Assembly: GCA_038883775.1 (NCBI GenBank)
Contig: JAVZLM010000003.1
Coordinates: forward strand, 32,001 to 96,000
Length of the DNA: 64,000 nucleotides
Direction of reading: 5' to 3'
From: Candidatus Bathyarchaeia archaeon
GTDB taxonomy: Archaea; Thermoproteota; Bathyarchaeia; Bathyarchaeales; Bathycorpusculaceae
Shown here: positions 14,656 to 57,658 of the stretch, piece by piece
Layout of the letters: every line of letters begins with the position of its first letter
Position numbering within the stretch: position 1 is the stretch's first letter
The notes under the pieces: model-generated
The model's input: the letters and a program-made list of their open reading frames with translations, nothing else
Told to the model about the DNA's origin: nothing
The model's database searches: none
Translations under genes and position numbers: made by a program

Positions 14656-14828
14656 AATTGTGTCACCAAACTAAATTGATATTCACATCAAATTGTCCAT
14701 GCATAAATACTTTTTTAAACACTTCTTATGTGTTAGATGACTCAACAATTTGCAATGTAAATTTTAAAATTTTGGAAGTAAGTTTTAAAAAGTGAATAAT
14801 GGTTAATTTCTGAGAAGAAGGTGAAAAA

Positions 14829-16628: not shown

Positions 16629-16768
16629 ATCGCTTCAACTTTCCCTTTCCTTTTCTAATCATATAACGCGATAAGTTCATGCTGTTTTTGAGGAGTTGAT
16701 GCAAATTTCAGCAAGAAATAAATATAGAGTCAGCAATATTCTGTGAGTTAATTTGATTTGGGATAATC

Positions 16769-19500: not shown

Positions 19501-19549
19501 TCTTTTCAACGTTTTTTGAAAAAGTTGACTGCTTGCAAAGTGGCTCGGA

Positions 19550-20782: not shown

Positions 20783-20937
20783 ACTCCCTTGTCTGATGCA
20801 TTAACTATAGCAAGGCTCCTAACATTAGATGTACAGTAAGGTATTTCATATTGCGATGTTTTTCTTATAAGAATTTTCTGTCTATAGCAATAAACAATAA
20901 AATGTAACAGAAAAAGGAGGCATTGAAGCACCAGCTG

Positions 20938-27505: not shown

Positions 27506-27604
27506 CAATATTTTCTATTAGCTACTTAGTATGTTGTTTTCAAACAAAGCAAAGTAATGATCTTTTAAAGCCAAAAAGTGTTTATGAAGTTAAAGGTTAT
27601 TAAC

Positions 27605-32113: not shown

Positions 32114-32238
32114 AAGCGTCGATGCTTTACTCCCTTTTTTATGTTATGATGTTTCTGTTGAGGATATAGAGAATTTTTCCAGAAAGCTTTTAAAGTTGTT
32201 TTCGGTAATAGGTTTTGGGAGAAAAGGAGAAATTGATA

Positions 32239-35200: not shown

Positions 35201-35400
35201 GCGTACCAATAGCATGGCAAATCCTAGGACCCTTCAACGTCACCTACGGCACCCACACCATAGTATTCGAATGCATGGAAGTACCCCACTGGGCATTCAG
35301 ATACAGATGCACGGCCTACGTCAACGCCCTAACAAGCCTGCCAACCCTCGGCGGAGCACAATACTGCCCAGAAATCTACGCAGTATTCGCAATAGAATAA
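32239..35400 (+). CDS. Large secreted protein: 2 cohesin-like domains (second with ~410 aa insertion) plus C-terminal Ig-like GGxxYCPE region
   Basis: Signal peptide; NLYGFDIRLKW..EYLEY; DISGFDFTVNFNSTLLE; no TM or dockerin at the C-terminus. Confidence 0.75.
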   Translation: MDIKEKKAYSLLSVLLLLVSFFAAATPVLKAQAPETAVRVFVNAPYQSEMTLGDGVTDVRGTIISIAVVVEDVENLYGFDIRLKWPMEYLEYVDHTFTIPWNTSQTPIDPSPYAGILYAPVSPVPGHGLHLDVGEIWAVMASQAPAPSFYGDGTVFVLRLRLIKQQYAYEGDVELVLNITTHDLAGKVPPGPLIIPHTAYNGRIILKGRAFAYPPLPLLKILPETIKDVKLCENFDISVWLMGEGGVDLDPFWDISGFDFTVNFNSTLLEAVDVKIDPANWWLGFYPGGVWTTAKEIDNVTGRVRIAFMGIPDPSRTPPHDAPHGKGILATITFHVIYESEKYPPPSAPIWLENPLPLALIDLYSENGLINLGSPVSTDWHEIMPAYCKRFGLTFWEDVDGDGRLSPNDQIRLLNKETGKWLPYRVHAVPVTMRVDILPFEYTDEYHEGTTAFTNAWPHPGIGSWTPPTPITEYPPPEGFPPVNISLTYLAQEVHSVEVLFPNGTRRLLNYGTEWDYYPGTNLVEIKMILGTPETEYFVEDVNMTTGWEGYVPKARVLLDPPPTGWIHRIRVQFPEEIPPEYLDLWDGFQGEYIELLPWKISGGYLWMNMWGEPGWDYNWAYHYAPNVGVVAIAPWDKFPPGTEVWIDYFAQSTQIWVNYTALELEPRWIKSAIGAADFPFTAPLTSEWTEIMPNFDKEHVITGWTDTDVNGRLSIGDIIQLYDVETGETKPANITLLATGLTVIQKPVICTFDLEDPFYGMVAIVDVAGFPHPERPMCPWHNQPYAVPIPHKTEPATYTAPFKPPGRWIDLYLWGIEACNGTRWEYADFAKGLGPNEPADAVQPQAKVVLRAFVTYNFQPIAGKSVTFELISPTGEFHIIRSAITGGWDTPLYGIAEVIVTIPWPYPDPEGRVFGTWNVIATVDIVKVVINDTLTFRLGYLIDTVFVIPGKQTYHKGEHMNFTLTYTSISHQIRTAYFTIVVYDELGVPIAWQILGPFNVTYGTHTIVFECMEVPHWAFRYRCTAYVNALTSLPTLGGAQYCPEIYAVFAIE
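32948..34643 (+). repeat. Patchwork direct repeat, copy A (copy B at 39393-41403)
   Basis: Blocks 32948-33108/39393-39553 (161 bp, 3 mismatches), ~33253-33591/~39698-40036, ~33850-33893/~40301-40344 and 34242-34643/41002-41403. Confidence 0.95.
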
Positions 35401-35489: not shown

Positions 35490-36479
35490 ATGCCTGAATA
35501 TACCAAAAATATGCCTATCAAAATTATCACAGTTTCCTTATTATTGTCCTTTTTGACAATAACCTTAGGCTGCGCCCAACTCGAGCCACTAAAAATAACC
35601 ATCGCCACTGACAAATCTACTTATCAATATAGGGAAATTGTAAACATATATGGAAACGTGACGTATGAAGGCGCTCCCGTGGAAAGGGGGTTAGTAGCGA
35701 TCAGTATAAGATATCCAAATGGTACAATAATAAGCGTGAGAACCGTTCCTGCCAAAAGCATCCCCTCAACTACTTGGAATGTTGGAATAACATCTTTTAT
35801 ATCTTGTGATCAAAATGGAAATCCAAAAAAGGACTTTAGGCGAGACTCTTTTGCATATTTTTATATGATCGCAAAAAACAATATTCCTTTTAGCTATACT
35901 GTTTTGCTCACAATTTCAGTTTATGATGTTGATCAAACTCCAATAGGAATCCTATGGCAAGGACCGGTTTCCGTGCCAGGTAATTCCGAAATTGGTTGGC
36001 TTATTGGAGTTTTAATCCCCACATGGGCGTCCACAGGAACCGGAAGGGCATACGCCAATGTGTACACAGATTGGCCGGAAAAAGGTGGTTACCCATATTG
36101 TCCAGAGTGGAACACTACTTTTAACATTGAACGTCAAACATCAATCCCAAATATTCCAAGTACAAACAATACTTACCAAGTATCATTTCGATTGCCCCCC
36201 TATGTACCTAGAGGCACATACCTAATTAATGTAAGCGCCTGGTATTCTGGATGGAAAGCTTTCCAATACACTACTTTCACGGTCGATTATAGGCTATTGG
36301 GAGACGTTGCCGAACCTTGGGGAATTATTAACGTATATGATGTGGTGATGTTAACATCCATATACGGCTCAAAAAGTGGCGATCAAAACTGGAATCCTGA
36401 ACTAGACTTAAATTCAGATGGCAAAATAGACATTTATGATGTTGTGATAGTAACTTCACAATATGGAACAAGATATTAG
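35490..36479 (+). CDS. Secreted Ig-like/GGxxYCPE-domain protein with C-terminal dockerin
   Basis: Signal peptide; TDKSTY; GGYPYCPE; GDVAEPWGIINVYD...DLNSDGKIDIYD. Confidence 0.78.
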   Translation: MPEYTKNMPIKIITVSLLLSFLTITLGCAQLEPLKITIATDKSTYQYREIVNIYGNVTYEGAPVERGLVAISIRYPNGTIISVRTVPAKSIPSTTWNVGITSFISCDQNGNPKKDFRRDSFAYFYMIAKNNIPFSYTVLLTISVYDVDQTPIGILWQGPVSVPGNSEIGWLIGVLIPTWASTGTGRAYANVYTDWPEKGGYPYCPEWNTTFNIERQTSIPNIPSTNNTYQVSFRLPPYVPRGTYLINVSAWYSGWKAFQYTTFTVDYRLLGDVAEPWGIINVYDVVMLTSIYGSKSGDQNWNPELDLNSDGKIDIYDVVIVTSQYGTRY

Positions 36480-36559: not shown

Positions 36560-36642
36560 CCTTCCTTAGTGTTTGAATGGAATTTAATTCCAAAATCTTT
36601 ATACGGTATCGCGCTCGATATTGTTATGGGAGAGGGGGAAAT

Positions 36643-38562
36643 ATGCAAAAAAGGAAAATTTTACAATTTTTGTTTTTCTTTCTGATGCTGATTATATGTT
36701 TTGTTTTCGAGGAAGTTTCGATATACGCTAAAGAAAGCGTTTCTTTTTCAGCTGAGAGTGAAAAGCCACTAGTTTATGTGGATCCGCCGGAGGTTCGAAA
36801 CTTGGCTGTTGGTAAAACTTTTACGATTAGTGTTAAAATCGCTAATGTTACAAACCTTTACGGCGTTGACATTGAGTTTCACTGGAACCCGACAATTTTA
36901 GAATATATGGAACATACTGTTTTGATTCCAGTGGACGATTATCCCGGCGGCGTTTTATATAAGCCCATTATGCCGATTGCAAATACGGTGAATGCCACTG
37001 GTGGAACATATAAGGTTGCTTATGCTTCCATGCTTCCTGCACCATCATTTGACGGAAGTGGAACAGTTTTCACGATGAAGTTTAAAGTGAAGAGCATAGG
37101 ACGCTCTTTATTGGACATTTATACGAGTGATTTGTCTGGAAAAGTTCCTCCGGGACCACTTATCATATACCATGATGTTCAAGATGGATACTTTTCTAAT
37201 TATGTTCCTTCGAAAGCGAAAATTTACATAAATCCTCCAAAAATAATAGATTCAACCTTAACGCCCACATCCAATTTCACAGTAAACGTAAACCTTGAAA
37301 ACGTAGTTGAATTTGACACCTTCGAATTTTGGATAAACTATAACACGACAATTTTAGACGCCTTTAATGTCACGGTTAACCCAACATTTCCAGCGGCACA
37401 AACCAATTTACAAATTATGGAAGCAGAAGGCAAAATTCGAACCAAAGCTTGGCTTCAACCAGCATCCCCACCCTACACGGGCAATCTAATGCTTGCGTCA
37501 ATAATATTTAAAGTGGCAGATATTGGCGCGAGCACTCTCGACTTGTATAATATTACGTTAGTGGATGCATGGAAAGAAAATATTCCATATCAAGAACCTG
37601 GAGACGGCTTTTTCAGTAACATGTTATTAACAAAGCTTTTTATTGATCCTAGCGAAATCATTGACCCCACGATACGTCCACCCATGACTTTCAATATTTA
37701 TGTTAAAGCTGAAAATGTTATGGATATGTATGGTTACGAGTTCAAACTATCTTATGATACAAACGTTTTAACTGCTTTAGGCGTTAGGATTCTTCCGCCA
37801 ACAAATGATACGAGCTTCACTGTTACTACAAGTATTGACGACCCATCGGGCTACATATGGATTAAAGTTCAATATTATCCGCCAGCCGTGCCCATCACTA
37901 TAACTTCCGCAAAAGCATTAGTGGAGTTGTTGTTCCAAGTTCAATCGTTAGGAGTTACCGTTCTCGACTTGCATGATGAGAGGCTTACAGACGTAAATGG
38001 CAACCAAATCCGCGTAGACGAGGTTGGAGATGGCTTCTTTATGTCTATTATAAGAAATGTTGCTATTTTAAATGCTACAGCCACTCCGAACAAAGTTTAT
38101 CCTGGAAGGATGGTTACAATAACTGTTTTGGTGAAAAACTTGGGCATTGGAATGAGTGAAACATTCAATGTGACCGTTTACTATGACAACAACCCGATTG
38201 CAACACAGATCGTCGCAGACCTTGCTCCCCAACACGAAACGACATTGACGTTTTTGTGGGATACCACCGGCTTACAGCCATGCAACAATTATACAATAAG
38301 GGCTGAAGCAAGCCAGGTTCCATTCGAGGTTAATTTGGAGGACAATATTTACTTTGATGGTTGGGTGAAAATTAAAATATGGGGCGATGTGGATGGCGAC
38401 GGAGATGTTGACATTTATGATATCGCCCTGGCGTCAGCAGCCTATGGAAGCCGTCCCGGAGATCCAAACTGGAATCCAGAGGCGGATGTTGCACCGGAAT
38501 GGGGCTTCATCAATATTTATGATATGGTGACAATTTCGTCTTATTATGGACAGACGTGTTAG
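36643..38562 (+). CDS. Adaptor scaffoldin-like protein: 3 cohesins + CARDB + dockerin
   Basis: Three V/I-Y/F-V/I-D/N-P...F..NV...F..(W/Y)(N/D)..L...DG(Y/F)F units; GDVDGDGDVDIYD...ADVAPEWGFINIYD; start at ATG 36643. Confidence 0.82.
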   Translation: MQKRKILQFLFFFLMLIICFVFEEVSIYAKESVSFSAESEKPLVYVDPPEVRNLAVGKTFTISVKIANVTNLYGVDIEFHWNPTILEYMEHTVLIPVDDYPGGVLYKPIMPIANTVNATGGTYKVAYASMLPAPSFDGSGTVFTMKFKVKSIGRSLLDIYTSDLSGKVPPGPLIIYHDVQDGYFSNYVPSKAKIYINPPKIIDSTLTPTSNFTVNVNLENVVEFDTFEFWINYNTTILDAFNVTVNPTFPAAQTNLQIMEAEGKIRTKAWLQPASPPYTGNLMLASIIFKVADIGASTLDLYNITLVDAWKENIPYQEPGDGFFSNMLLTKLFIDPSEIIDPTIRPPMTFNIYVKAENVMDMYGYEFKLSYDTNVLTALGVRILPPTNDTSFTVTTSIDDPSGYIWIKVQYYPPAVPITITSAKALVELLFQVQSLGVTVLDLHDERLTDVNGNQIRVDEVGDGFFMSIIRNVAILNATATPNKVYPGRMVTITVLVKNLGIGMSETFNVTVYYDNNPIATQIVADLAPQHETTLTFLWDTTGLQPCNNYTIRAEASQVPFEVNLEDNIYFDGWVKIKIWGDVDGDGDVDIYDIALASAAYGSRPGDPNWNPEADVAPEWGFINIYDMVTISSYYGQTC

Positions 38563-41600: not shown

Positions 41601-42649
41601 ACTTCCTTGTAAGTTTAATTGTAACAGATGAAGACTACGTGAATAGCTCCGCCTTTGTCGTCAGCATACATGTGGCTAGTTGGCCATCACCAGTAGCTAA
41701 CTTCACTTACTCGCCTACCATGCCAATAGAATGTGAAACTTTAATTTTCGATGCTTCTCTAAGCTATTCTCCAATGGGCGCTGAAATTGTCAGTTATGTT
41801 TGGGATTTTGGTGACGGTTCTCCAGTTGTTGTTGAATCGGATCCAATAACAACCCACGCATACGCATACGCGGGTTCGTATAAAGTCACCCTTACCGTAA
41901 AAGATCTATACAACAGTACCAACAGCATTTCGACTCACCTGCTTATCACTCGTGGTTTTGCAGCCCTAAACGTTGAAACAGATGTTGGCTCGATCTATTT
42001 TGTAGGAGAACTAGCAGAGTTCCGATTCCTAGTAAGCTTCCTGGGCGAACCTAGTAACGCAACGAAACTTAGCGCCAAGTTGTATGGGCCGAATAAACAA
42101 ATGATAGCAAAATACGTTTATCCAACCAATATCACTTTGTTCGCCACTGGAGTATACAGCATCACTTATGAAGTAGGTGCCGCTGCGGGGGTATACACAT
42201 TAGTTGTTGAGGTTGAATATTCTTCGCTCAAGGCAAGCGGACTTAAAAGTTTTCTAGTAAGCGCTACTCTAAACAATTGGGATGCCATAATAACGGACAT
42301 AAAAGATGAAATAGCGACCGTTGTTGTGCCAACCCTTGGAGAAATCAAGCTAAACTTGACTTCCATCAACGCAACATTATCTAATCTAATAGTTAATAGT
42401 AAAGGTGAAATCCTTGCAGAACTAGACACTGCATTAGGTTCGATAACCGCTAAGTTAAATACAATCAACACAGCCATAACTGCCATTGATGGCAACGTTG
42501 TAGACATCAAAACTTCTGTGGGCGACATACAAGCAACTCTCGGCGGGTTACAATCAACACTAACACTTGGTTTAGCAGCAACAGCGATACTCTCCATTAT
42601 AGCAGTATTATTAGCTGCTCTAATCTTGTTAACATTGAAAAAGAAATAA
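38684..42649 (+). CDS. Membrane-anchored scaffoldin-like protein: 2 cohesins (second with large insertion), PKD x2, stalk repeats, TM
   Basis: NLYGIDINMTWDITYLEY; central region shared with the 32239 gene; two WDFGDG; C-terminus similar to the 27605 gene; TM plus KKK. Confidence 0.78.
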   Translation: MMNNLWKKLSNCLWISLIISAMLLSNVHVMAGNEYSIQQAPTKVRVIPSPIEFKGGNATGQEFDVAVVVENVTNLYGIDINMTWDITYLEYVSHEFTMPVTDYPNPIPPSPYPGILNGPLITTIEDVNPTAGYIRVGKATMAQPPPPSFNGNGTVFVVKFRVKYHPQEADTVTYLHLASTDLAGKMPPGPLIIPHERQDGVVILRSYFEYPPMPLLDLRINGDKEYNAIRIGERFNVSVWLMGEGGVDLDPFWDISGFDFTVNFNSTLLEAVDVKIDPANWWLGFYPGGVQVFAESIDNTVGRVKIAFIGLPDPTQTPPHDPPNGKGVLAIVTFHVIYESETYPPPSAPIWLENPLPLALIDLYSENDLINLETPVSTDWHELTPTYCKHFNVTFWEDVDGDGRLSPNDQIHLLDKETGKWLPYRVHAVPVTMRVDILPFEYTDEYHEGTTIFTNTWPPYHALLSGLKLDPAYPVITWPPTYVPVNLTLSYAALDVSSVEVEFPNGTRRLLTENTEWEWFYGSDQLEIKIPLGVPKSCAFVEGVNMTTGWEGYVPKGRVILPDQTTGWIHRFVVTPVKDRIDLYVTIVDSAEFNVTRTYAIYLNETLIETGELTYLGEPIELYTVINDIDPGYYVLNFTLDSPDDKPWSVEIYGALFYSYEDEFYTEGNVTISSPLTVDFTADPPTLTVLPLGERGGYLWMNIDADGDGDAEPGWYWNMGYDYAPNNPVVAIAPTWTGTEPTDRFPLGTVVTIDYMAECTKMWVNYTAIEPTKWIKSAIGAADFPFTAPLTTEWKELMPYPDKQHVITGWTDTDGNHRLSIGDIIQLYDVETGETKPANITLLATGLTVIQKPVICLADTSDPFYGQVAIVDVAGFPHPERPMCPWHNKAYSVPIPHKTEPATYTAPTRGPIANFTYTPSEPVQFEEITFDASLSYSPANKTIVSYVWDFGDGSPVVVESDPITTHAYLSSGDFLVSLIVTDEDYVNSSAFVVSIHVASWPSPVANFTYSPTMPIECETLIFDASLSYSPMGAEIVSYVWDFGDGSPVVVESDPITTHAYAYAGSYKVTLTVKDLYNSTNSISTHLLITRGFAALNVETDVGSIYFVGELAEFRFLVSFLGEPSNATKLSAKLYGPNKQMIAKYVYPTNITLFATGVYSITYEVGAAAGVYTLVVEVEYSSLKASGLKSFLVSATLNNWDAIITDIKDEIATVVVPTLGEIKLNLTSINATLSNLIVNSKGEILAELDTALGSITAKLNTINTAITAIDGNVVDIKTSVGDIQATLGGLQSTLTLGLAATAILSIIAVLLAALILLTLKKK
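39393..41403 (+). repeat. Patchwork direct repeat, copy B
   Basis: Same blocks as copy A, with an extra ~90-100 codon segment around 40400-40760. Confidence 0.95.
41509..41856 (+). repeat. Intragenic PKD repeat, 72 bp identical
   Basis: 41509-41580 = 41785-41856. Confidence 0.9.
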
Positions 42650-42753: not shown

Positions 42754-45700
42754 ATGATTAAAAATTGTTTAAAAACTTTCATATTTATTATGCTTCTGTT
42801 TAGCATAAATCTGGGAACCGTTAAAGATGTTTTTTCGGGCACCTCACCAAAAAGCGTTATAGATTATCCCATAGAATCCGTAGAGCATGAACTTATAGTA
42901 AATTGGATAACTCCACCTCAAGATCTTAATCTTAGAGAATCAACTATTATAAAAGTTAGCGTAACTAACAGCGGCTTAGAAAACGAGAGTGATGTGCAAT
43001 TATCTCTTTCAATTAACGATAGTATTGTTGCTTCCAAAACTTTTCCGTTGTTAATTGCAGGTTCTATGGGCACTTTGGAGTATGAATGGACTCCTGCTGT
43101 GGAGGGACAATACAATGTTACTGCTTATTCACTACCAGTAGTTAATGAAACAGACACAGCAAACAATGTTGTGTCTAAAATAGTTCAAGTTTGTCGTGTT
43201 GTTGTTTGTGTAGAACCAGAAACGGTCACGGCGAATGTAAACGAAACCTTCACTATTAACGTGAAAATTGCTAACGTTACGAGACTTTTTGGTTTCGACA
43301 TTCAATTCCGCTGGAGTCCAATAACTCTAAAATATGTCAGTCATAAGGTTAAAGTGCCAAAGGGTTCAACCTATCCTGACGGCATTCTTTACGGCTCTCC
43401 ATTAATAATTAAAAATATGGTGAACGAATCTGGAGTATCTGAGGCTTCTCCAGGAACTCTCTTTTGGCTCTCTGTTGTTTCTTTTGGCACTTCTTTGTCG
43501 TTTAATGGAACAGGAATAGCATTCAATATGACTTTTAAAGTATTGCAAAAAGGCGAATGTGACATATACTTTACATCCGTGGATCTTTCCGATAAGAAAG
43601 GAAAGTCGATTCCCCATGAAGTTAGAGACGGCTACTTTTACATGGAAGGATTAGGCTCTGTGCCCGTGGCTAACTTCACTTGTTGGCCGTCGAAGCGTGT
43701 GGATAGCGTAGATTGCGTTGTTGTTGGTAAGTCTGTTGTTTTTAATGCTTCTTTGAGTTATGATCCTGATGTGGGTGGCGGAATTACCTTGTACATGTGG
43801 GATTTTGGTGATGGAACACGTTTAAACACAACTGAATCCCTCATAAACCACACATATGCTGCAGAGAAAACTCGAAATCCTGTTTCCTTAACCGTTGTGG
43901 ATGTTGAGAATTCAACAAGTAGGCTGTTTTATCGGTTAATAGATATTGTTAACCCAAAGCCTGTGGCTAGATTCACGGTTTGGCCTCCTGATGGACACCC
44001 GGTTGTTGGTAAGTCTGTTGTTTTTAATGCTTCTTTGAGTTATGATCCTGATGTGGGTGGCGGAATTACCTTGTACATGTGGGATTTTGGTGATGGAACA
44101 CGTTTAAACACAACCGAACCCCTCATAAACCACACATATTTGGAAGTTACTGGTATAAGTGCACGTGTAGTGCGGTTAGTTGTCAAGGACGCTGAAAACC
44201 TTACAAGCGAACCGGCCACTTTCTCTTTGTATGTTATAGGCTCGCGTGACGTTAACGTAAAGAATGTTGAAGTATATCCAACCTTGGTTATGCCTGGAGA
44301 TGTTGTGGTTGTTAACGCTACCATAGCTAGTTTGGTAACACAATCAGCGTATAATTTTACAATGGGCTTTGATGTAAAGGTGTTTTGGACAGATTATAGT
44401 GAAATCATGCAAGGTGTGATTGATCAGAAAAAGGTTGAATTGGCCACAAACGTTAGCAAAATTTTTACTTTCTCTTGGAACACAACGGGCATGTCCGAAG
44501 GAGCTTATTGGGTTTGGGTTGAAGCCCTAAATGTTCCTCACGAAGATGATTTTACTAATAATATTTGGCGCAGTTCTGAGGCTGTTAATGTTACATTGAG
44601 AGAGGTTCACGATGTGGCGATTAAAGATTTAACCCTAGCTGTTAGTGTTGAAACAAAGGAATTTGCGCCGCCGGCGATTGTTGGAGAGAATGTAACTATG
44701 CGCGTTTATGTTATGGCAAATGGCACTGTTTCAGAGACTTTTAACGCCACTTTAAGAGTGATGGACTCGGAAGGTGAAGTTTTGTTTAGCAAAATTTGGC
44801 TTAATGAAGGTTTAGCAGCGCGAGAGACAAAGGAGTTAAAGTGCGTGTTTAACACGGAGGATGCGGCTGCTGGTAAGTATATAGTTTCTGTTAACGTCAC
44901 AATTGCGGAGGTGGATGAGCATCCTGATGATAACCTTAGAAGTGTGGAATTTAGAATTATTAGGTCTCCATTTTTATTAGTTGAACCCTTGCCGAGCCTC
45001 ATAGTTGTAGGAGATACCGTTGTTTTTAATGCTTCTGCCAGTTATCATTTAGACGGGGCTATTGTAGGGTATAGATGGGAGTTTTTTGACCCTAATGGAT
45101 TTCTTAGGCGTGTGGAAACAAGTAAAGCTGTTGTTAACTTTACATTCCCTGAGCAAGGTGGTGTTGGGGTATGGGTTATTAAGTTGATCGCGGAGGATAA
45201 TTATACAATAACTTACGGTGCTGATAGGCCCTTGACTGAGCCTTACCGCAAGGTTTTTGAGGTGAATGTTAAAGGAGCCAGTGTTATAGCTCTTCAGCTT
45301 AATCCAGCAACTATACAATATGGTCAATCCATCATTATAAATGGAACGTTAACGCCGCCCAGAGAAGGCGTGAATGTTACTGTTAGGGTTAATGGTACTG
45401 TTTTGGCTACAGTGTTAACTGGTGATATGGGCAACTTTACAATTACTTGGAAGCCAGACAAAGCTGGAACCTACCTAATCGAGGCATCTTGGCCTGGCGA
45501 TGCTGAAACGGCTCCTTCGGCAGATGAAAAAATCTTGATAGTTAGTAAAGCAGTGAGCAGTATAACTTTAAATGTTTCTCCTTCAACGGTTTCTGTTGGG
45601 GAAAATGTTATCATAAGCGGGGTTCTTTCTCCAGAGGAAATCGGAGCTCATGTGAATGTTACTGTTAGGGTTAATGGTACTGTTTTGGCTACAGTGTTAA

Positions 45701-46423: not shown

Positions 46424-46434
46424 AAACCTTAAAT
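46424..46434 (+). promoter_or_regulatory. BRE/TATA AAACCTTAAAT upstream of the SBP gene
   Basis: The identical 11-mer is also at 48915-48925 and 52026-52036. Confidence 0.65.
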
Positions 46435-46480
46435 GGCAATTCGCGTTACAATAGTTTTTGAGAGAAAGGAGAAAGAGGTT

Positions 46481-48871
46481 ATGAATTCGAAAAAAGTTGC
46501 TTTGATGTTTGTATTGTCGCTGGTTCTCTTTGCTTCTTTAATGGTTCATTCGTCTCCTAGGAAGGTTGCATTGGCTGCCGAGGTTCAGAAGGGACCGCGG
46601 GCTCCAGAGTTTCAGATGATTCTTAAGGCTACGACTGAGGCTGCTTATGCCTCTTTGGTTGCTGGTGAACTTGAGTATATAGGCGGTTTGCTTCCAGCCC
46701 AATTTGAGGATGCTCAGAGGCGTCCCGAAATAACAACTTATCTCGAACTTATTTATAGCATGCAAGATGAAGCCATTATGAGCAACTATTCCATGCCCTC
46801 TCAGAAGTCTCATCCTAACGCTCCACCAGGCTCCAGCGGAATCCTCCGCAGTCCAACAAACGATGTGAACTTTAGGAAGGCTGTAAACCACCTGTTCAAC
46901 AAGGACTGGATCTGCGAAACCGTTTGGAAGGGGCTTGTTGAAAGAATTGATGTGCCAATTGCTGCCCCATCCAAGGGTTGGATGAACACAAGCTGCTTCA
47001 ACCTTTACCCATTCAGCTTTGAACAGGCAATAGCCAAACTCACGGACCCAGCCGTTTACGGAAGCGCTCAAAACGGCTGGTACGACTACGACGGAGACGG
47101 CATAAGAAACTATCCTCTTGACTGGCCGGGCGTTCAAGGCCAACCAGGCGTTAGAGACGAGCCAAACATGCTTCCACTTCAGTACTGGATTTACGACGAC
47201 CCACCGCAGAGATACGAGTTCGCCCACAACGTGGCAGAAAACCTAAGAAGCATAGGCATCCCAGTAGATGAGCACGTTGCACCCTTCCAGCTTATAAACG
47301 ACCAGTGCTTCTGCGCCTACGATTACCACCTAAGCTCAGACGGTTGGGCTGTGGGAAGGTTCCCAACATACATACAATTCTTCTTCGACAGTGAACTGTG
47401 GATTCCAGGATATTGTGGAGCCAACTGCTACACAGGTGGCAATGAGCCTTGGACTGCTGAGATAGACGAGGCTGTTAGGGCTGTAAGGTATGCTGCAACC
47501 CCAGAGGATAGCAGAGTAGCATGCCTTTACGCTCAGTGGCTGCTTGTGGACAAGTGGGCTGTTGGCATGATTCCGCTTTACACGCCTAAGGCTGCATACG
47601 CCGTTAGAAACGTTTTGGGCGCCGTCAAATTCTTCGGAGCATCGCCCTTCAACGAGTTAGCCATGATGAACATGTTCCGAATTGACGATCCAAACGCCCC
47701 AATAAGGATGGGATTCGACTTCCCACCAAACGTTAACACGATCTACTGCATGTGGGCTGTGGGCTACACAATAATGCAGATGACATGGGAATTCCCAATG
47801 CAGCTTAACCCATTAGACCCCATGTATGAGATGCCTTGGGGCGCCATAGACTGGGACGTAGGAACATGGGTTGATCCCGCTGACGGCAAAACAAAAACTG
47901 TCACCAAATGGTGGTTTAGGCCAGGAACCAAATACATAGCGCCGGTAACAGGAGAACCCTTAGACGACTTCACTGCGGCATCAAACATTTTCGGAATGTG
48001 GTACGTCTATCAGACGACAGATGCCTGGTGGTGGAGCGACTTCAGAGACCTCCACCACATAAGAGTAGACCCAACAAACCCATACTACTTCGAAATATAC
48101 TTCAACAGGTTCAGCTGCTGGTTCTACTTGGATACGCCCTATTCCACAAACTTGGGAATCTACCCGCCAGCCTACAAGGTTTATCCGCTATGCGACAACC
48201 CAGACCACACGTACACAAGCGGGCAACCAGTAGACCCAATAGTTAGAGTGTTCGTTGAAGGCGAAAATATGTCGACTCCAGGCGACTTGGCATTGCCATG
48301 GCAAACGAAATATGCGCCAGTAGAAATAGTCTCCATAGTACAGCAGGGCGTTGGCCCACTAAAGCCGTCAGACACAACGGGCAATTATGACTACGAAATG
48401 GTTAAGGGCAAAATCCACATATACAAAGACCTGCCAAACGGAGCAGTAATAACAGTCACATACTACGGCAGAGGAGAAGCCTACGGCACAACACCAGGAG
48501 ACATTCCATGGGACAAAATCTTCATAGGAGCAGGAAAATGGTACATGACCTACTTAGACCTACTGGCAGGCGCATACTTTAAGGCTAACAGAAACTACTG
48601 GGCTGAAACTCCGCCATTAGGCGAAACAGACTGGTACTACTGGAGAATTGAAGGACCCAAACCAAGAAAAGGCTACTTCCAAATCAACATATATGACGTG
48701 GTAGTAGCCACAGGCGCCTACGGAACCCAAGGCAGATACACCCCAGACCCAGCCTTCACAGTATCCGCAGACCTAGCCCCATCAGCCGACGGCCTAGGAG
48801 GCAAAATAGACATCTACGACGTAGTCACCATAACAGGAAGCTACGGAACCAAATTCTGGGAAATCAAATAA
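46481..48871 (+). CDS. Opp/Dpp-type (family 5) ABC substrate-binding protein with C-terminal dockerin
   Basis: PTNDVNFRKAVNHLFNK, A..L..IGIPV, IPLY, FIGAGKWY..Y..FKANRNYW; tail INIYDVV..TGAYG...DLAP...GKIDIYDVV..TGSYG; directly upstream of oppBC. ATG 46433 lies in the TATA box, so the start is placed at 46481. Confidence 0.8.
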   Translation: MNSKKVALMFVLSLVLFASLMVHSSPRKVALAAEVQKGPRAPEFQMILKATTEAAYASLVAGELEYIGGLLPAQFEDAQRRPEITTYLELIYSMQDEAIMSNYSMPSQKSHPNAPPGSSGILRSPTNDVNFRKAVNHLFNKDWICETVWKGLVERIDVPIAAPSKGWMNTSCFNLYPFSFEQAIAKLTDPAVYGSAQNGWYDYDGDGIRNYPLDWPGVQGQPGVRDEPNMLPLQYWIYDDPPQRYEFAHNVAENLRSIGIPVDEHVAPFQLINDQCFCAYDYHLSSDGWAVGRFPTYIQFFFDSELWIPGYCGANCYTGGNEPWTAEIDEAVRAVRYAATPEDSRVACLYAQWLLVDKWAVGMIPLYTPKAAYAVRNVLGAVKFFGASPFNELAMMNMFRIDDPNAPIRMGFDFPPNVNTIYCMWAVGYTIMQMTWEFPMQLNPLDPMYEMPWGAIDWDVGTWVDPADGKTKTVTKWWFRPGTKYIAPVTGEPLDDFTAASNIFGMWYVYQTTDAWWWSDFRDLHHIRVDPTNPYYFEIYFNRFSCWFYLDTPYSTNLGIYPPAYKVYPLCDNPDHTYTSGQPVDPIVRVFVEGENMSTPGDLALPWQTKYAPVEIVSIVQQGVGPLKPSDTTGNYDYEMVKGKIHIYKDLPNGAVITVTYYGRGEAYGTTPGDIPWDKIFIGAGKWYMTYLDLLAGAYFKANRNYWAETPPLGETDWYYWRIEGPKPRKGYFQINIYDVVVATGAYGTQGRYTPDPAFTVSADLAPSADGLGGKIDIYDVVTITGSYGTKFWEIK

Positions 48872-48958: not shown

Positions 48959-49951
48959 ATGGGCTTCAAAACCTACCTAGTTAAAAGGACCATATATAGC
49001 CTAGCACTTTTATGGGCTATAATGTCAGTAAACTTCATAATCTTCTCCCTTATACCAGGAGACCCAATCGGCAGATGGGTTAAAAACCAAGAGGCAGCCA
49101 TATCAAAAGAAGAAATAATGGAGTTAAGGCGAATCTACGGGCTGGATATGCCACTCCACGAAAGATACTTCTTGTATCTTCAAAACATGTTAACATGGAA
49201 CTTTGGAAGATCACGATACACACAAGCAGACATAAAAACAGACATAATGAATAGACTTGGAAACACCCTCTTACTCTTGGGAATAGCAGACGGCTTCACA
49301 ATATTTGCCGGAACATTGTTAGGCGTATTAGTTGCATACAAAAGAGGCTCAAAATTAGACACAGCATTAGTCACAGCCTCCCTAGGCACATACAGCCTAC
49401 CAGTCTTCTGGTTAGGATGGCTAATACTCTTCTTTTTCGCCATATACCTAAAATGGTTCCCAGTTGGGGGAATATACCCAGCCGAATGGATGAAACAGTG
49501 GCCCACAAGCATAGTAGAAATAATTGCTGGAAGACTGAAACACATAGTCCTCCCAGTTTTAACCCTTTTCATCTTTAACGTAGGCGGATGGCTACTATTA
49601 ACAAGGTCATGCGTACTCGAAGCCATAACCGAAGACTACGTAGTAACAGCAAGGGCAAAGGGATTAAGCACAAGAAAAGTCTTGTTAAACCACGTCTTAA
49701 GAGTTGCATCCCTACCAATCGTCACATCTCTAGCTTTAACATTAGCTGGACTTTGGAGCGGCGCAATTGTAACCGAAACCGTTTTCAGTTATGAGGGAAT
49801 GGGAAGGTGGATTTGGAGGGCCATCGGATTACAAGACATACCAATCATGTACGTTGTTTTCTACATATCCGCCCTCACAATAATCATTGCCAACTTCATG
49901 GCAGACCTCATTTATGGAGTATTAGATCCAAGAATAAGAGTCGGGGGATAA
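48959..49951 (+). CDS. oppB: Oligopeptide/dipeptide ABC permease B
   Basis: PGDP, YGLD.P, EDYVVTARAKGL, ETVFSYEGMG, ADLIYGVLDPRIR. Confidence 0.92.
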   Translation: MGFKTYLVKRTIYSLALLWAIMSVNFIIFSLIPGDPIGRWVKNQEAAISKEEIMELRRIYGLDMPLHERYFLYLQNMLTWNFGRSRYTQADIKTDIMNRLGNTLLLLGIADGFTIFAGTLLGVLVAYKRGSKLDTALVTASLGTYSLPVFWLGWLILFFFAIYLKWFPVGGIYPAEWMKQWPTSIVEIIAGRLKHIVLPVLTLFIFNVGGWLLLTRSCVLEAITEDYVVTARAKGLSTRKVLLNHVLRVASLPIVTSLALTLAGLWSGAIVTETVFSYEGMGRWIWRAIGLQDIPIMYVVFYISALTIIIANFMADLIYGVLDPRIRVGG

Positions 49952-51576: not shown

Positions 51577-51957
51577 TTAACCTTTACTCAAAGAATCTAT
51601 TTTTTCATCTAAAAATCTCCAAAAATCATCCTCAATTTTTTCCAAAGCCTCTAAAGACTTCAAACCTTTCGATAAAAACCATCCACCGCCCAAAAATGAT
51701 GTCAACCAGCCAAACTTAACAAACGAACGAGAACGCCTTCCAGCCTCAAAAACCACCAAGAAATCATCAGGTTTCCCTCTAATAAAAACTTCAATGTGTT
51801 CGCATAAGTCATGAATGCGCCTAGGAGCTGCTGTAATCTTATACTCTTCCGATGAACACTGCATATTCGTCAAAAAACCCCTATGCTTAAAGAAACCCTC
51901 TAAAACTTCACACAGCAACTTTAAGTTAATATTTTTTCGAATCCACCGACTCTGCAT
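51577..51957 (-). CDS. Hypothetical protein inserted antisense within the opp cluster
   Basis: 126 aa ORF with a GAGG RBS that fills the oppC-oppD gap. Confidence 0.7.
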   Translation of the reverse strand: MQSRWIRKNINLKLLCEVLEGFFKHRGFLTNMQCSSEEYKITAAPRRIHDLCEHIEVFIRGKPDDFLVVFEAGRRSRSFVKFGWLTSFLGGGWFLSKGLKSLEALEKIEDDFWRFLDEKIDSLSKG

Positions 51958-52110: not shown

Positions 52111-53073
52111 ATGGAATTACTTAATGTCAACAACTTAAAAACTTACTTTTTCACACTGAGTGGTGCAGTGAAGGCTGTAGACGGCGTAAATTTTGTAATT
52201 GAAAAAGGAGAAGCAATGGGGTTAGCCGGAGAATCCGGTTGCGGAAAAACCACAGTAGCCCTATCGCTTTTAAGAATTCTTCCACCAGGAGGAAAAATTG
52301 TTGGCGGAAAAATCCTATTCAAAAACTTAAACATAGTCGACTTAGATGAAAGTGATCTGCGGAATAAGGTAAGATGGAAAGGAATTTCTTTAATATTCCA
52401 AGGAGCAATGAATGCGCTTAACCCCGTCCACAGGGTAAAGGACCAAATTATAGAAGCAATAAAGTTACACGAACCGCATGTAACAAAGGATGAAGCTAAA
52501 GAAAGAGTTTTAAAACTCTTTGAAATGGTAGGTTTAGATCCTTCAAGGGTTAACAGTTATCCTCATGAATTAAGTGGAGGAATGAAGCAGCGTGCCATGA
52601 TAGCAATGGCTCTAGCGTGCAACCCCGAACTTTTGATAGCGGATGAACCTTCAACAGCATTAGACGTTATAGTTCAAGCTCAAGTCCTCCAACTTATAAA
52701 GCATTTAAAAGAAAAACTACAGTTATCCATGATACTTATATCTCATGATCTGTCAATTGTTGCCGAAACATGCGATAAAGTGGCTATTATGTATGCGGGA
52801 AAAATAGTAGAATACGGAGATGTCAAAACACTTTTCGAGGAACCTCTACATCCATACGCACAAAGTTTGATAAAGGCCTTTCCACACATTAAAGAAGCTA
52901 AGACCCGCTTAATTTCTATACCAGGCGCTCCCCCAGATCTAATAAATCCTCCCACTGGTTGTCGATTCCACCCCAGATGCAGTTATAGTATGGAAATTTG
53001 TAAGAAAAAAGAACCGCCTATGATAAATGTTAAGGGTAACGCGCATTACGTAAGTTGTCACCTTATTGGTTAA
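52111..53073 (+). CDS. oppD: Oligopeptide ABC ATPase D
   Basis: GESGCGKT, LSGGMKQR, IADEP, HPY..GCRFHPRC tail. Confidence 0.93.
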   Translation: MELLNVNNLKTYFFTLSGAVKAVDGVNFVIEKGEAMGLAGESGCGKTTVALSLLRILPPGGKIVGGKILFKNLNIVDLDESDLRNKVRWKGISLIFQGAMNALNPVHRVKDQIIEAIKLHEPHVTKDEAKERVLKLFEMVGLDPSRVNSYPHELSGGMKQRAMIAMALACNPELLIADEPSTALDVIVQAQVLQLIKHLKEKLQLSMILISHDLSIVAETCDKVAIMYAGKIVEYGDVKTLFEEPLHPYAQSLIKAFPHIKEAKTRLISIPGAPPDLINPPTGCRFHPRCSYSMEICKKKEPPMINVKGNAHYVSCHLIG

Positions 53074-53093: not shown

Positions 53094-54089
53094 ATGAGCG
53101 AAACAATAGTTAAAGTAGTAAATTTGAAAAAATGGTTTCCTGTAAAATTGGGTTTCTTTAAAACATTAGTTTCCCGCAAGCAACTTTATGTTCGCGCGGT
53201 AGACGGCATAAACTTAGAAATAAAAAAGGGAGAAATTTTTGGACTTGCAGGCGAAAGTGGGAGTGGAAAGACCACTACAGGACGGTTACTTGTTAAACTT
53301 ATTGAACCAACATCCGGACAAATTTTCTTTGGTGATAAAGATGTAACTAACCTTCCAGAAAGCCAATTTAAGCCTTTCCGTCAAAAAATACAAATAATTT
53401 TCCAAGATCCATATGAGTCGCTTAATCCTAGAATGACAATTTTTGACATTATAGCTGAACCTTTACGCCTTCAAGCTGGTTTAAGCGGATCTGAACTTGA
53501 TGAAAAAGTTTTCAAAGTCTTAACCGACGTAGGTTTAGTTCCGCCTCATGAGTTCATTTTTAGATTCCCCCACGAGTTAAGCGGAGGACAAAGGCAACGA
53601 GTGGCTACGGCGAGAGCTTTATCGCTGAGTCCAGATTTCATAGTTGCTGACGAACCAGTGTCAATGTTAGATGTATCTATCAGAGCAGAAGTTTTAAATT
53701 TAATGTTCGATTTAATGAAGAAGTACCATGTGTCTTTCCTTTACATCACACATGATTTAGCATTAGCTCGACACATCTGCGACGAAATAGCTATAATGTA
53801 TCTTGGTAAAATCATGGAAAAGGGACCTACAGAAAAAGTCATTTATGAACCTTTGCATCCCTACACAAAAGCCCTAATATCAGCTGTTCCTGTTCCTGAC
53901 CCATCATCAAAACGAGCGGAAATAGTGATAAAAGGAGAAATTCCAAGTCCAGTTAACCCACCCCCAGGCTGCAGATTCCACACAAGATGTCCAGAATACA
54001 TTGGCGACGTGTGTAGAACAAAAGAGCCAACGCTTATAAATGTGGGAAAGGCTCATTATGTTGCATGCCATTTATACTCTAAACCTTAA
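53094..54089 (+). CDS. oppF: Oligopeptide ABC ATPase F
   Basis: GESGSGKT, FQDPYESLNP, LSGGQRQR, DEPVSMLDVS, GCRFHTRC. Confidence 0.93.
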   Translation: MSETIVKVVNLKKWFPVKLGFFKTLVSRKQLYVRAVDGINLEIKKGEIFGLAGESGSGKTTTGRLLVKLIEPTSGQIFFGDKDVTNLPESQFKPFRQKIQIIFQDPYESLNPRMTIFDIIAEPLRLQAGLSGSELDEKVFKVLTDVGLVPPHEFIFRFPHELSGGQRQRVATARALSLSPDFIVADEPVSMLDVSIRAEVLNLMFDLMKKYHVSFLYITHDLALARHICDEIAIMYLGKIMEKGPTEKVIYEPLHPYTKALISAVPVPDPSSKRAEIVIKGEIPSPVNPPPGCRFHTRCPEYIGDVCRTKEPTLINVGKAHYVACHLYSKP

Positions 54090-54458: not shown

Positions 54459-57400
54459 ATGGAGATGAAGGAACTGAATATCAAGATAGCAATTTTAGTA
54501 ACGCTGCTAACTTTCCTGACATTAACATTAAATGGCATAAGCGTAATAGAGGGGCAATGCGTAAACCAGGCGTCGCTCGAATGGAATCAAAGAGACCTTG
54601 AACGGATTCTTGATCAACAAGACCGGTTGAAAAAAATTGCCTATGTGAAAAACGACCTTGTCAGGTTGGTGTTGGGAGTTGATGCTCAAGTTTCATATAG
54701 CTATTTTAAGCTGGAAAAAGTTGTTGCCGCTTATAGTGGGCGCATAGTTAATTTAATCTCGATGAACAGCGAAGTTAAAGCAGTAACTGTTGAAATTCCA
54801 ATAAAGCGCTCTTCGATTTTTATGAGTGAAATAACTGAAAAAAAGATGGCAAAGTTTATTGAGCCTAACTTTAAATTTCAATGTCAGTTTGTTCCAAATG
54901 ATCCTTATTGGACACTGCAGTGGGGACCGCAAAAAATAGAAGCTCCTTGGGCATGGAACATAACAGTAGGTGACCCCTCAGTTCTTGTGGCGGTTGTGGA
55001 TACTGGAATAGATTATTCCCATCCAGATCTAGCTGCTAACTATGTCGCCCTTGGCAGGGATTGGGTGAACGGTGACCCGGATCCCATGGATGATGAGGGA
55101 CATGGAACACATTGTGCAGGCATAATAGCCGCTGTATTAAATAACGGCATCGGCATCGCCGGGGTGGCTAAAATTAAAATAATGGCTGAGAAAGGTCTTG
55201 ATAGAACAGGATCCGGATACACAGATTGGCTTGCGAATGCCATCATTCACGCTGTAGAAAAAGGTGCCAAAATTATAAGCATGAGCTGGGGAGGATACTA
55301 CCACAGCAAACTAATTTATGAAGCAATTAAATATGCTTATGATTCTGGCGTGCTTTTAGTGGCGGCCGCAGGTAACGATCGAGTAAATGCAAAACTATTC
55401 CCTGCGGGTTATAATGAAGTTATAGCCGTTGCGGCAACAGACGATTACGATAATGTTGCTTCATGGTCCAACTTCGGCGATTGGATTGAATTGTCAGCGC
55501 CGGGAGTGCAGATTTATTCTACTTATCCAAGAAATAATTATGTGTATTTAAGTGGGACTTCGATGGCGGCGCCGCATGTAAGTGGTGTTGCAGCTTTAAT
55601 TTGGAGCCAATTTCCAGAAAAAAGCAGAGACTGGGTGAGGATACGTTTACGATACACTAGCGATGACATCAGTTTTCCAGGTTATGATATTCGTTCTGGT
55701 TATGGAAGAATTAACGCAAGAAAAGCTGTTGAGCAGCCTCTGTTAAATCATGATTTAGCCTTTTACGATTGGGAGTTTCCTCCTTATGTAGAACCAGGAA
55801 GCACGGCAACGGTTAATTTTACAGTGTTGAATTTTGGAGCGCAAAACGAATACGATGTAACTATACAGCTGTTAATAGAGGGAGCCCTCACAAACTTTAC
55901 CGTTATAAGCTTCATTGCTAATGGTACATCTGAAACAGCAAGTGTTAAATGGAACCCAGTTACAAAAGGAAATTATAACGTCACTTTATATTTGGTTCCC
56001 GTATCTGGCGAATTTTCCATCCAAAATAACAGAGTTACAAAATTTGTTTATGTAGATTTTCCAAGAAAAGCTTTGGTTCTAAGTTCAGAAGGGAATGTTT
56101 TAAGTTTTGTCACCCGCAATTGGGATGAGTTAAATGCGAAATGGTCTTCCTTTGGAGATAACATGATCTACATTGATTATACAACTTTAAACAAAGAAGA
56201 CATAACGTACGAAGAGATTGCAACTACAAACGCAGACGTTTTAATAATTTCGAGTGCATGGACTTCCGAGTATGGATGGGAATTTACAGATTCAGAAATA
56301 GACGCTATAAAGAGATACGTGCTTGAAGGACACGGATTAATAGTTACGGAAGCTACATTTTATCATCCAGTTCAAAACAATGTTAAGTTAGCTTCGCTGT
56401 TAGGGTTAAACGACTCGTTAATCTGGAATTATACAACAGCCACCTCTCTCAATCTGATAGAACCTAGCCATCCGCTTCTACGTGGAATCCCAAATCCCTA
56501 TTCTTTTCCGGAAGTAACAACTATGATTTCTTTAGACGGTTTATGGGATGACAATGAGTTAGAAGGCGGCAAATATATTGCGCTGGGAAGCAATAAGAAA
56601 ACTGCAATAGTTGTCTCTGAACGTGGCCGCGTTTATATTTCGCCTTATCTTGAAAGTATAGATCCATCAGCAAGTCAGAATCATCTAAAGTTACTTTACA
56701 ACGCCATTACATGGTCACCTCATGAACTTTCGGTATCATTGGATGCGCCAAATTATCATCCTTTAGGCGAATCATTGCTGCTTAATGCAACAGTTCATAA
56801 CATTGGATCCGTAAATGAAACAAATGTTCTTTTGCAATTGATTATTAATGGTTCAACAGTCTGTTCCGCAGTTATTGCAGAGTTAAAAAGCAATTCTTCT
56901 TATACGATAAGCTACTTATGGACGCCGGAAGAGGGCGAATACAATGTTACAGCTTATGCTGCTCCAGTAAAAGGCGAGACTTTTAAAATCAACAATACTG
57001 AAACGAAAATTGTCAAGATATCGCGTTTTCGTGATGTGGCGGTGTTTAACATTTCAGCTCCGAATGCGGCTTATAAAGGAAGTATTGTAAAAATCGAAGT
57101 TTTGGCAGGAAATTTGGGAGAACTCAGCGAAACCTTTAATGTTACCGTATACTGTGACTATACACTTATAGCCACGCTTCCTGTGGTAGACTTACTCCCA
57201 AAACAAAATATAACATTAACACTTTGGTGGAACACTTCAGCGTTAACACCTTGTCATACGTATAATATTTGGGCTGAAGCAACATCGGTTTCAGGTGAGG
57301 TTAACATAGAAAATAATGTTTTCATTGGGGTGCAAGTGAAGATTAAAATGCTTGGAGATGTAAATGGAGATGGTAACATTAACATTTACGATGTTGTGTT

Positions 57401-57533
57401 GGTCGCGTCAATTTATGGATGCAAAGAAGGAGATCCCAACTGGAATTCAGAAGCCGACTTGGCTCCACCATGGGGATTAATCAACATATATGACATTGTA
57501 GTAATAACCTCCGTATATGGGCAAAAATGTTAA
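54459..57533 (+). CDS. Secreted S8 subtilisin-like protease with CARDB domains and C-terminal dockerin
   Basis: Signal and propeptide; VAVVDTG, GHGTHCAG, AAGN, GTSMAAPHV; tail GDVNGDGNINIYD...ADLAPPWGLINIYD. Confidence 0.92.
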   Translation: MEMKELNIKIAILVTLLTFLTLTLNGISVIEGQCVNQASLEWNQRDLERILDQQDRLKKIAYVKNDLVRLVLGVDAQVSYSYFKLEKVVAAYSGRIVNLISMNSEVKAVTVEIPIKRSSIFMSEITEKKMAKFIEPNFKFQCQFVPNDPYWTLQWGPQKIEAPWAWNITVGDPSVLVAVVDTGIDYSHPDLAANYVALGRDWVNGDPDPMDDEGHGTHCAGIIAAVLNNGIGIAGVAKIKIMAEKGLDRTGSGYTDWLANAIIHAVEKGAKIISMSWGGYYHSKLIYEAIKYAYDSGVLLVAAAGNDRVNAKLFPAGYNEVIAVAATDDYDNVASWSNFGDWIELSAPGVQIYSTYPRNNYVYLSGTSMAAPHVSGVAALIWSQFPEKSRDWVRIRLRYTSDDISFPGYDIRSGYGRINARKAVEQPLLNHDLAFYDWEFPPYVEPGSTATVNFTVLNFGAQNEYDVTIQLLIEGALTNFTVISFIANGTSETASVKWNPVTKGNYNVTLYLVPVSGEFSIQNNRVTKFVYVDFPRKALVLSSEGNVLSFVTRNWDELNAKWSSFGDNMIYIDYTTLNKEDITYEEIATTNADVLIISSAWTSEYGWEFTDSEIDAIKRYVLEGHGLIVTEATFYHPVQNNVKLASLLGLNDSLIWNYTTATSLNLIEPSHPLLRGIPNPYSFPEVTTMISLDGLWDDNELEGGKYIALGSNKKTAIVVSERGRVYISPYLESIDPSASQNHLKLLYNAITWSPHELSVSLDAPNYHPLGESLLLNATVHNIGSVNETNVLLQLIINGSTVCSAVIAELKSNSSYTISYLWTPEEGEYNVTAYAAPVKGETFKINNTETKIVKISRFRDVAVFNISAPNAAYKGSIVKIEVLAGNLGELSETFNVTVYCDYTLIATLPVVDLLPKQNITLTLWWNTSALTPCHTYNIWAEATSVSGEVNIENNVFIGVQVKIKMLGDVNGDGNINIYDVVLVASIYGCKEGDPNWNSEADLAPPWGLINIYDIVVITSVYGQKC

Positions 57534-57658
57534 AGCGTATTAACCTCTTTATTAAAGTGCACTATTTTATCCTATAATTTACAAATAAGTTATACTAGAA
57601 GATAATTCCAAAAGTTTTAAATGTTTTGAGGCGAAATTATTTTCGGGGAAGGGAGAGA

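Follow-up and report, generated by a model that had tools for sequence, protein, structure and literature searches.

Archaeal substrate-binding proteins (SBPs) of ABC importers are retained at the cell surface in several ways, and the account of anchoring in PMC3387779 lists a signal peptidase I signal combined with a C-terminal transmembrane helix (the oligopeptide class), lipid attachment, class III signals and archaeosortase. A further mode is found in the anaerobic methanotrophic (ANME) archaea, for which the relevant part of Chadwick et al. (2022, PMC9012536) gives binding proteins of the NikA/OppA and TroA types as common dockerin proteins. Here we describe an SBP gene of a Candidatus Bathyarchaeia archaeon, located in a stretch of 64,000 nucleotides (hereafter the window; positions 32,001 to 96,000 of the forward strand of contig JAVZLM010000003.1, assembly GCA_038883775.1), whose product combines a circularly permuted body with a divergent C-terminal dockerin, as judged by profile comparisons, and is probably tethered to cohesin scaffolds encoded beside it. 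An earlier note on this DNA had given the usual archaeal anchors much as PMC3387779 does. It had also called dockerin display an unusual mode for an SBP, and this did not hold up, since the ANME precedent (PMC9012536) makes it an already known mode and hence not a new one. What appears to be undescribed is the circular permutation of a cluster-C SBP and a dockerin with the SBP-specific loop expansion, since we found no report of either feature: a literature search for a permuted OppA-type SBP turned up TpMglB-2 alone, and one combining Bathyarchaeota or Bathyarchaeia with dockerin gave, by titles and abstracts, no paper on such SBPs.

Both precedents differ from the Bathyarchaeia protein. The ANME proteins resemble it in being archaeal, in belonging to the same Pfam family and in coming from cohesin-rich genomes, as far as PMC9012536 describes them. 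One ANME example, of 580 amino acids (aa), has a single unbroken PF00496 match over residues 134-495 that covers 99% of the model, and COG0747 extends to residue 578, so that this protein has the canonical order and its dockerin presumably sits N-terminally, whereas the Bathyarchaeia SBPs are permuted and carry a C-terminal dockerin with expanded loops. TpMglB-2 of Treponema pallidum is, like our protein, an ABC binding protein with a naturally occurring circular permutation and constitutes a subfamily of its own; those who described it suggest that the altered topology is connected with tethering (PMC4990184). As presented there, it differs in being a type I, cluster B protein with another cut site and a lipid anchor, and without a dockerin. 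The present family would add a second case of natural circular permutation in ABC binding proteins, and here too the protein would be a tethered one.

The SBP gene lies in an open reading frame (ORF) spanning 46433..48871 on the forward strand. The ATG at 46481 is the most likely start, giving 796 aa; AGGAG and GAGGT motifs lie 2-14 nucleotides (nt) 5' of it, none precedes 46433, and the database copy of the protein likewise has 796 aa. SBP_bac_5 was the sole Pfam family found, with 49.4 bits against a gathering cut-off of 32.4, which bears out the class given in the earlier note and places the protein, by its profile match, among the cluster-C binding proteins. A scan with NCBIfam models stayed far under every equivalog cut-off and gave no informative name. 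The Pfam match spans just residues 51-291, which correspond to profile positions 158-348 of 368.

This partial match reflects a rearrangement that the earlier note overlooked, as the canonical lobe order, with profile positions 1-368 running colinear with the chain, is not the one found in this protein. When an alignment of 94 family sequences was compared by hhalign with four Escherichia coli SBPs (DppA, OppA, NikA and GsiB), residues 36-399 paired with DppA 234-533 (98.8%, E 5.8e-17) and residues 452-719 with DppA 76-245 (94.8%, E 5e-8), the latter having reached only E 3e-3 with 30 sequences. All 48 PDB matches of the family profile, among them AppA (1xoc_A, E 2e-16) and DppA, paired positions ~35-367 with the C-terminal half of the canonical chains. 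Pfam agreed in relatives: in 13 of 15 the N-terminal part of the SBP body matched profile positions ~146-366, and in the remaining two it was the C-terminal half that matched positions 2-153. The best Pfam stretch of relative P0168 (181 bits overall) pairs residues 446-602 with profile positions 2-141, and relative P0036 matches 4oet_A in swapped order (358-546 with 15-185, E 6e-5; 98-255 with 255-398, E 2.7e-8). Its comparison with 5u4o_A locates the cut between NKNYWG (up to residue 225) and the next strand (from residue 228). In the protein of the window, Pfam found no SBP_bac_5 match within residues 430-720, and two of six such halves of relatives matched; because Pfam misses its C-terminal half, the permutation of this protein itself rests on hhalign together with the colinear relatives. 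As a lead only, the ESM-Atlas neighbours of residues 430-720 include a canonical SBP cluster (TM-score 0.54).

All relatives listed are colinear with the window protein, which makes the permutation a family trait rather than an assembly artefact. By these alignments the whole SBP family is circularly permuted, with the canonical C-terminal part first and the N-terminal part second, and its new C-terminus lies directly after the NxNYW motif. The permuted topology also accounts for standard models seeing half of the domain and for annotation pipelines labelling many members hypothetical; a database search with the SBP gave 36 homologues. In its profile matches and its OppBCDF-type partners the protein is like the other cluster-C SBPs (OppA, DppA, NikA, AppA), from which it differs in the permuted order, the cut after NxNYW and an extra insert of ~100 aa. 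This insert (family hidden Markov model [HMM] positions 538-632) has no counterpart in DppA and is lacking in the P0036 clade, and a Pfam scan of it gave nothing beyond a chance-level cNMP_binding match. A faint resemblance was noticed between GPRAPEFQMILK (residues 38-49, 46592-46627) in the N-terminal strand and KPRKGYFQINIY (residues 727-738, 48659-48694) at the end of the expanded loop described below. It could be left over from a duplication that gave rise to the permutation, or could have arisen by chance; as evidence of a duplicated strand it was rejected as too weak (hhalign E 0.005 over 12 columns, controls ~0.09).

Immediately after the body comes a tail made of a 25-residue loop 1 (GETDWYYWRIEGPKPRKGYFQINIYD), a helix, a 16-residue loop 2 (DLAPSADGLGGKIDIYD) and a second helix. 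The duplicated terminal motif reported in the earlier note is indeed present, as INIYDVV..GAYG and IDIYDVV..GSYG at residues 735-748 and 776-789, and five further window proteins end in it too (8143, 10907, 35490, 36577 and 54459, proteins being designated by their first window coordinate). An HMM of those five modules, built with the SBP excluded, matched its residues 734-791 with 38.0 bits (E 2.1e-12), and a profile of 15 SBP tails matched the five modules at 99.1% (hhalign E 1.5e-18, 50 columns). The five-module profile in turn reached solved dockerins (2y3n_B at 1.3e-13 and 5k39_B at 2.7e-10, as well as 2b59_B, 2ccl_B and 1daq_A), while Pfam Dockerin_1 gave ~21 bits in two of the five (cut-off 22.9). 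Distant members of the SBP family pass that cut-off on their own (P0146, 23.3 bits; P0157, 23.9; P0168, 28.4). By these profile links the tail, a tandem duplication with two helices homologous to proven dockerins, is a divergent dockerin. In ESM-Atlas, 6 of 10 rows of the models nearest to the tail carry Dockerin_1 (a lead only), and a feature search with the tail there was discarded as noise (best score 0.75).

Both helices persist in the tail, as do the I-Y pair (loop positions 10-11) and the acidic loop-end residues, with positions numbered by what we take to be the calcium-loop convention for dockerins (Asp/Asn at 1, 3, 5, 9 and 12). Each repeat retains positions 9 and 12. An alignment of 30 sequences has 12 invariant columns, 5 of which are the loop-end residues E715, D717, D739, D764 and D780 (E715, D717 and D764 being loop starts), and this argues for a selected and probably metal-binding module. 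Type I dockerins and archaeal cohesin-dockerin pairs (Archaeoglobus fulgidus, cited in PMC9012536) have in common with the tail a duplicated segment of ~22 residues, two helices, an Asp at position 12 of the loop and Asp or Asn at position 9; they differ in their loop lengths, in positions 3 and 5, which are non-canonical in the tail, and in being matched by Pfam.

The earlier note had also remarked on an expanded first calcium loop, and a survey of the family supports this. In 116 analysable tails the first loop, counted from the Gly of G[ED]x[DN] up to its last Asp, has the canonical 12 residues in 6, 18 in 19, 25 in 52 (including the window protein) and 30-37 in ~20. It is always flanked by G[ED]x[DN] and [IV][DN]I[YF]D, and the alignment with dockerins starts at helix 1. 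Such a length series with constant flanks fits an insertion into the calcium loop.

The N-terminus (MNSKKVALMFVLSLVLFASLMVHSSPRKVALAAEVQKGPR) begins with a basic n-region followed by a hydrophobic core of 17 residues, and an A-L-A stands five residues ahead of the conserved GPR that starts the folded domain (MNSKK, the core, then HSSPRKVALA|AEVQKGPR); on inspection it shows the n-, h- and c-regions and the small residues at -3 and -1 of a Sec signal, which we infer to be cut by signal peptidase I. Residues 1-40 contain no Cys and so no lipobox, and a Kyte-Doolittle scan found a single hydrophobic stretch (residues 3-26, core 6-22) and no hydrophobic helix at the C-terminus, where the chain ends in ...GSYGTKFWEIK; on both points the earlier note was right. 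Among 175 fetched relatives, 73 N-termini have the same core followed soon by G[PAV]R, usually with a small-x-small motif before it (A-L-A, V-K-A, V-N-A and others, by eye), and 21 of the 73 have a Cys somewhere ahead of G[PAV]R.

The protein belongs to a large family. A phmmer search of 1.84 billion representatives gave 285 matching clusters (50% identity) at E<=1e-3, 95 of them at E<=1e-30, and canonical SBPs are outside its reach. All 25 genome loci recovered came from Bathyarchaeota or Bathyarchaeia metagenome-assembled genomes, in a scan that used the tail motif and is therefore biased toward the dockerin-tailed SBP family; several SBP paralogues occur per genome. The tail is carried by 143 of 157 C-terminally complete relatives, so that, on this count, it is a hallmark of the whole Bathyarchaeia family and not a one-off. 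Cohesin ORFs were present in 10 of the 25 related loci. In some relatives SBP and cohesin are fused (L023, 2-3847; L025, 7770-11516; P0070; P0105), with the permuted SBP followed by CARDB and/or one to three cohesins and then a canonical dockerin; in P0070 the tail is replaced by CARDB-cohesin-dockerin.

The strongest indirect argument that the tail serves retention comes from two relatives, P0153 and P0146, which are sisters in a tree of the SBP bodies (FastTree, midpoint root, local support 0.89) and are 40% identical across 604 aa, as far as the equivalent of the NxNYW motif. After that point P0146 has a canonical dockerin (the Pfam match given above), and P0153 has a stalk and a transmembrane helix, with a YtkA-like domain before the helix and RRRR after it, which is the exact transmembrane retention device of the Sulfolobus and Aeropyrum SBPs. 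Because the sisters differ after a shared motif, dockerin and transmembrane anchor are, on this comparison, alternatives at the same site. The oligopeptide-class SBPs of Sulfolobus and Aeropyrum, as characterized in PMC3387779, share with the window protein an N-terminal signal combined with a C-terminal retention device, which in them is a Ser/Thr stalk with a transmembrane helix and in our protein a dockerin, on a permuted body.

The SBP is the first gene of an oppBCDF-like operon within an island of cohesin proteins (Table 1). Cohesins were found in the 29720, 32215, 36577 (three), 38684 and 42754 proteins, as well as in 8143 and 10907; that of 32215 lies at nt 32338-32868, and one of those of 36577 at nt 36760-37206. 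The neighbours proposed in the earlier note as docking partners (29720, 38684 and 42754) do carry cohesin modules, and each ends in a transmembrane helix plus basic residues. The 42754 protein, encoded directly upstream of the SBP, scores just 18.8 bits with Pfam Cohesin, yet its module aligns with the other cohesins.

Taken together, these data point to the following arrangement. The N-terminal Sec signal would be cut by signal peptidase I and the SBP released; its dockerin would then bind a cohesin of the neighbouring scaffolds and hold it at the cell surface, replacing the Ser/Thr stalk and transmembrane helix, or the lipid anchor, of other archaeal SBPs, and from there it would pass its ligand to the permease. 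We give this tethering, together with a role of the SBP as substrate receptor of the adjoining Opp/Dpp/Nik-type importer, a joint probability of about 0.6. The interpretation in the earlier note is therefore plausible and supported by context.

Several observations weigh against it, and they bear on the tail, on the N-terminus and on the surroundings of the gene. Pfam Dockerin_1 (PF00404) is silent on the tail even at E<=10 and gave nothing at E<=1 in 15 close relatives, and the SBP-tail profile alone reaches solved dockerins only at E 0.41. The loops have 25 and 16 residues instead of 12 and 11 and are non-canonical at positions 3 and 5, so that calcium and cohesin binding may be altered or lost. 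Almost no linker joins the body to the tail, and expansion of the first loop is confined to SBP tails, being found, by our reading, in none of 14 dockerins on non-SBP ORFs of the loci, so its role could be tied to the SBP body rather than to docking. The Pfam result, the match at E 0.41, the near lack of a linker and the SBP-specific loop would fit a dockerin-derived tail that no longer binds cohesins and instead stabilizes the permuted chain ends or contacts an external domain of the OppC-like permease, which has a conserved insert of ~270 aa; residues 708-719 even align by hhalign with the canonical strand that follows NxNYW. We consider this unlikely, given that the helices and I-Y pairs are identical to those of other dockerins of the window and the acidic loop-end residues are invariant. 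Moreover, basal relatives bear canonical dockerins at the same site and one bears the transmembrane anchor, CARDB-cohesin-dockerin stands in place of the tail in some (P0070), and the permease insert has no similarity to an alignment of cohesins (hhalign E 0.49), on which it was also rejected, at the sequence level, as a hidden cohesin.

The second difficulty is that the N-terminal hydrophobic stretch, of at least 17 residues, looks like a transmembrane helix in the Kyte-Doolittle scan, and the folded domain begins just ~15 residues past its core. An uncleaved signal anchor could then hold the SBP on the membrane, and the dockerin would work in reverse, bringing cohesin scaffolds, along with the enzymes docked on them, to the transporter. 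Most of the 73 N-termini have small residues at -3 and -1 just ahead of GPR, which speaks for cleavage. So does P0153, which pairs a like N-terminus with a C-terminal transmembrane helix, as do the signal peptidase I-cut oligopeptide-binding proteins of archaea treated in PMC3387779, and the scaffolds of the window pair such an N-terminus with a C-terminal helix too. An uncleaved anchor thus seems improbable.

The third set of objections comes from the related loci. In 16 of the 25, the flanks that were fetched contain no transporter genes (several of the contigs are short), and none of the 25 has as a neighbour the S8 protease that is encoded just downstream of the operon in the window. The SBP might mainly capture ligands for an extracellular complex of cohesins and dockerins, much as a carbohydrate-binding module does in a cellulosome, and not be a dedicated transporter receptor. 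The several paralogues per genome and the cohesin fusions L023, L025 and P0070 would suit such a role, and so would the site of the DppA Asp discussed below, where the family has a gap. A complete oppBCDF-like set starts with or adjoins the gene in the window and in nine loci, and bacteria commonly have orphan OppA paralogues that share one transporter; we therefore hold a pure capture role to be quite unlikely and retain the tethered importer receptor as the preferred reading.

The SBP-permease-permease-ATPase-ATPase order occurs in 9 of the 25 related loci. All parts of the importer fall under the NCBIfam equivalog cut-offs, and its ligand may be a peptide or an oligosaccharide. At residues 288-295 (~47340-47365) of the SBP the motif GW..GRFP is nearly invariant in the family, and the Asp of the DppA motif GWTGD, which we take to be the residue holding the amino group of the peptide, aligns by hhalign with a gap. 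The ligand may for this reason be something other than a peptide with a free N-terminus.

If the dockerin-tethered receptor is real, the cohesin-dockerin system would organize nutrient uptake as well as degradation in Bathyarchaeia, which are abundant uncultured sediment archaea whose uptake of organic matter is inferred from genomes alone. A more speculative extension, on which we would sooner bet against than for, links all parts of the picture: the cut after NxNYW would have created a C-terminus from which the SBP could hang on scaffolds with its cleft toward the permease, a beta-hairpin-like expansion of loop 1 would couple the tail rigidly to the body, and the result would be a harvesting complex on shared scaffolds. 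Degradative enzymes (here the S8 protease) and receptors would then sit on common scaffolds, which would allow products to be caught at the site of their formation. The cellulosome principle would thereby be put to a new use, and the proteins would make up a new cluster-C subclass, in parallel with the 'cluster Bc' that was proposed for TpMglB-2.

Table 1. Predicted features of the SBP gene, its operon and the surrounding cohesin island (window coordinates)
Feature	Coordinates	Strand	Basis
Permuted SBP_bac_5 binding-protein gene with dockerin-like tail	46481..48871	+	ORF, Pfam; 796 aa plus stop
Predicted Sec-type signal peptide, residues 1-32	46481..46576	+	Sequence, Kyte-Doolittle scan; cleavage predicted
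Counterpart of C-terminal part of canonical cluster-C SBP (DppA 234-533), residues 36-399	46586..47677	+	hhalign, Pfam, PDB matches
Counterpart of N-terminal part of canonical SBP (DppA 76-245), residues 452-719, NRNYW at end	47834..48637	+	hhalign, relatives
Beta-rich insert of ~100 aa, residues ~575-678	48203..48514	+	Gap in DppA alignment
Divergent dockerin, residues 714-791	48620..48853	+	HMM, hhalign, loop survey
OppB/DppB-type permease	48959..49951	+	BPD_transp_1 129 bits; NCBIfam Opp/Nik permease models below cut-off
OppC-type permease, extracytoplasmic insert of ~270 aa between first and second transmembrane helices	49954..51573	+	BPD_transp_1, NCBIfam
OppD-type ATPase	52111..53073	+	ABC_tran plus oligo_HPY; NCBIfam OppD 331 bits, below cut-off
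OppF/DppF-type ATPase	53094..54089	+	ABC_tran plus oligo_HPY; NCBIfam matches
Candidate anchoring scaffold: signal, CARDB, cohesin (residues ~150-305, nt 43186-43653), PKD, Ig, C-terminal transmembrane helix	42754..45933	+	
Candidate anchoring scaffold: cohesin (nt 38795-39301, Pfam 30.9 bits), PKD, C-terminal transmembrane helix	38684..42649	+	
Candidate anchoring scaffold: CARDB, cohesin-like (nt 30185-30712, 21.4 bits, below cut-off), PKD, C-terminal transmembrane helix	29720..32113	+	
Adaptor-type scaffoldin: three cohesins (77.3 bits, 3 stretches), CARDB, C-terminal dockerin	36577..38562	+	
Dockerin-bearing S8 subtilase, putative cargo	54459..57533	+	Peptidase_S8 202.8 bits, CARDB x3, Dockerin_1 21.1 bits
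Dockerin-bearing putative cargo	35490..36479	+	Tail Dockerin_1 21.5 bits; homologues in L002, L010, L017

Other observations concern the operon and the island. The insert of the OppC-like permease (residues ~90-345) contains the motifs DGCIEI, F.YPY, GNYTF and LDN..L.YG and is kept in eight loci. In the gap between this permease and the first ATPase lies an antisense ORF of 126 aa (51577-51957, reverse strand), for which tblastn found counterparts of 32-49% identity in eight related loci, most of them located in that gap and oriented alike, and which matched no Pfam or NCBIfam family. Scans for promoters, terminators, tRNAs, Rfam families and tandem repeats gave nothing relevant.

Within the island, the proteins encoded at 32215-35400 and 38684-42649 (both forward strand) are paralogues with 57% identity over 915 aa and long identical runs, and the former is without the C-terminal transmembrane helix of the latter. 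The 35490-36479 protein has a lipobox-like motif at its N-terminus (...LLSFLTITLGCAQ) and, from this motif and its tail, may be both lipid-anchored and dockerin-bearing; its homologues adjoin cohesin genes in all three loci listed in Table 1. Two further surface proteins, one at 57626-61252 (forward strand; CBM96, PKD, seven InlB B-repeat domains and a C-terminal transmembrane helix) and one at 27578-29620 (forward strand; a NosD/beta-helix domain, PKD and a C-terminal transmembrane helix), hint by their domains at polysaccharide rather than protein substrates in the island. Elsewhere in the window, a peptide-catabolism cluster at 11931-22644 contains four TldD/PmbA-type metallopeptidase genes in two pairs, along with an S9 prolyl oligopeptidase, an M14 carboxypeptidase and an MFS transporter.

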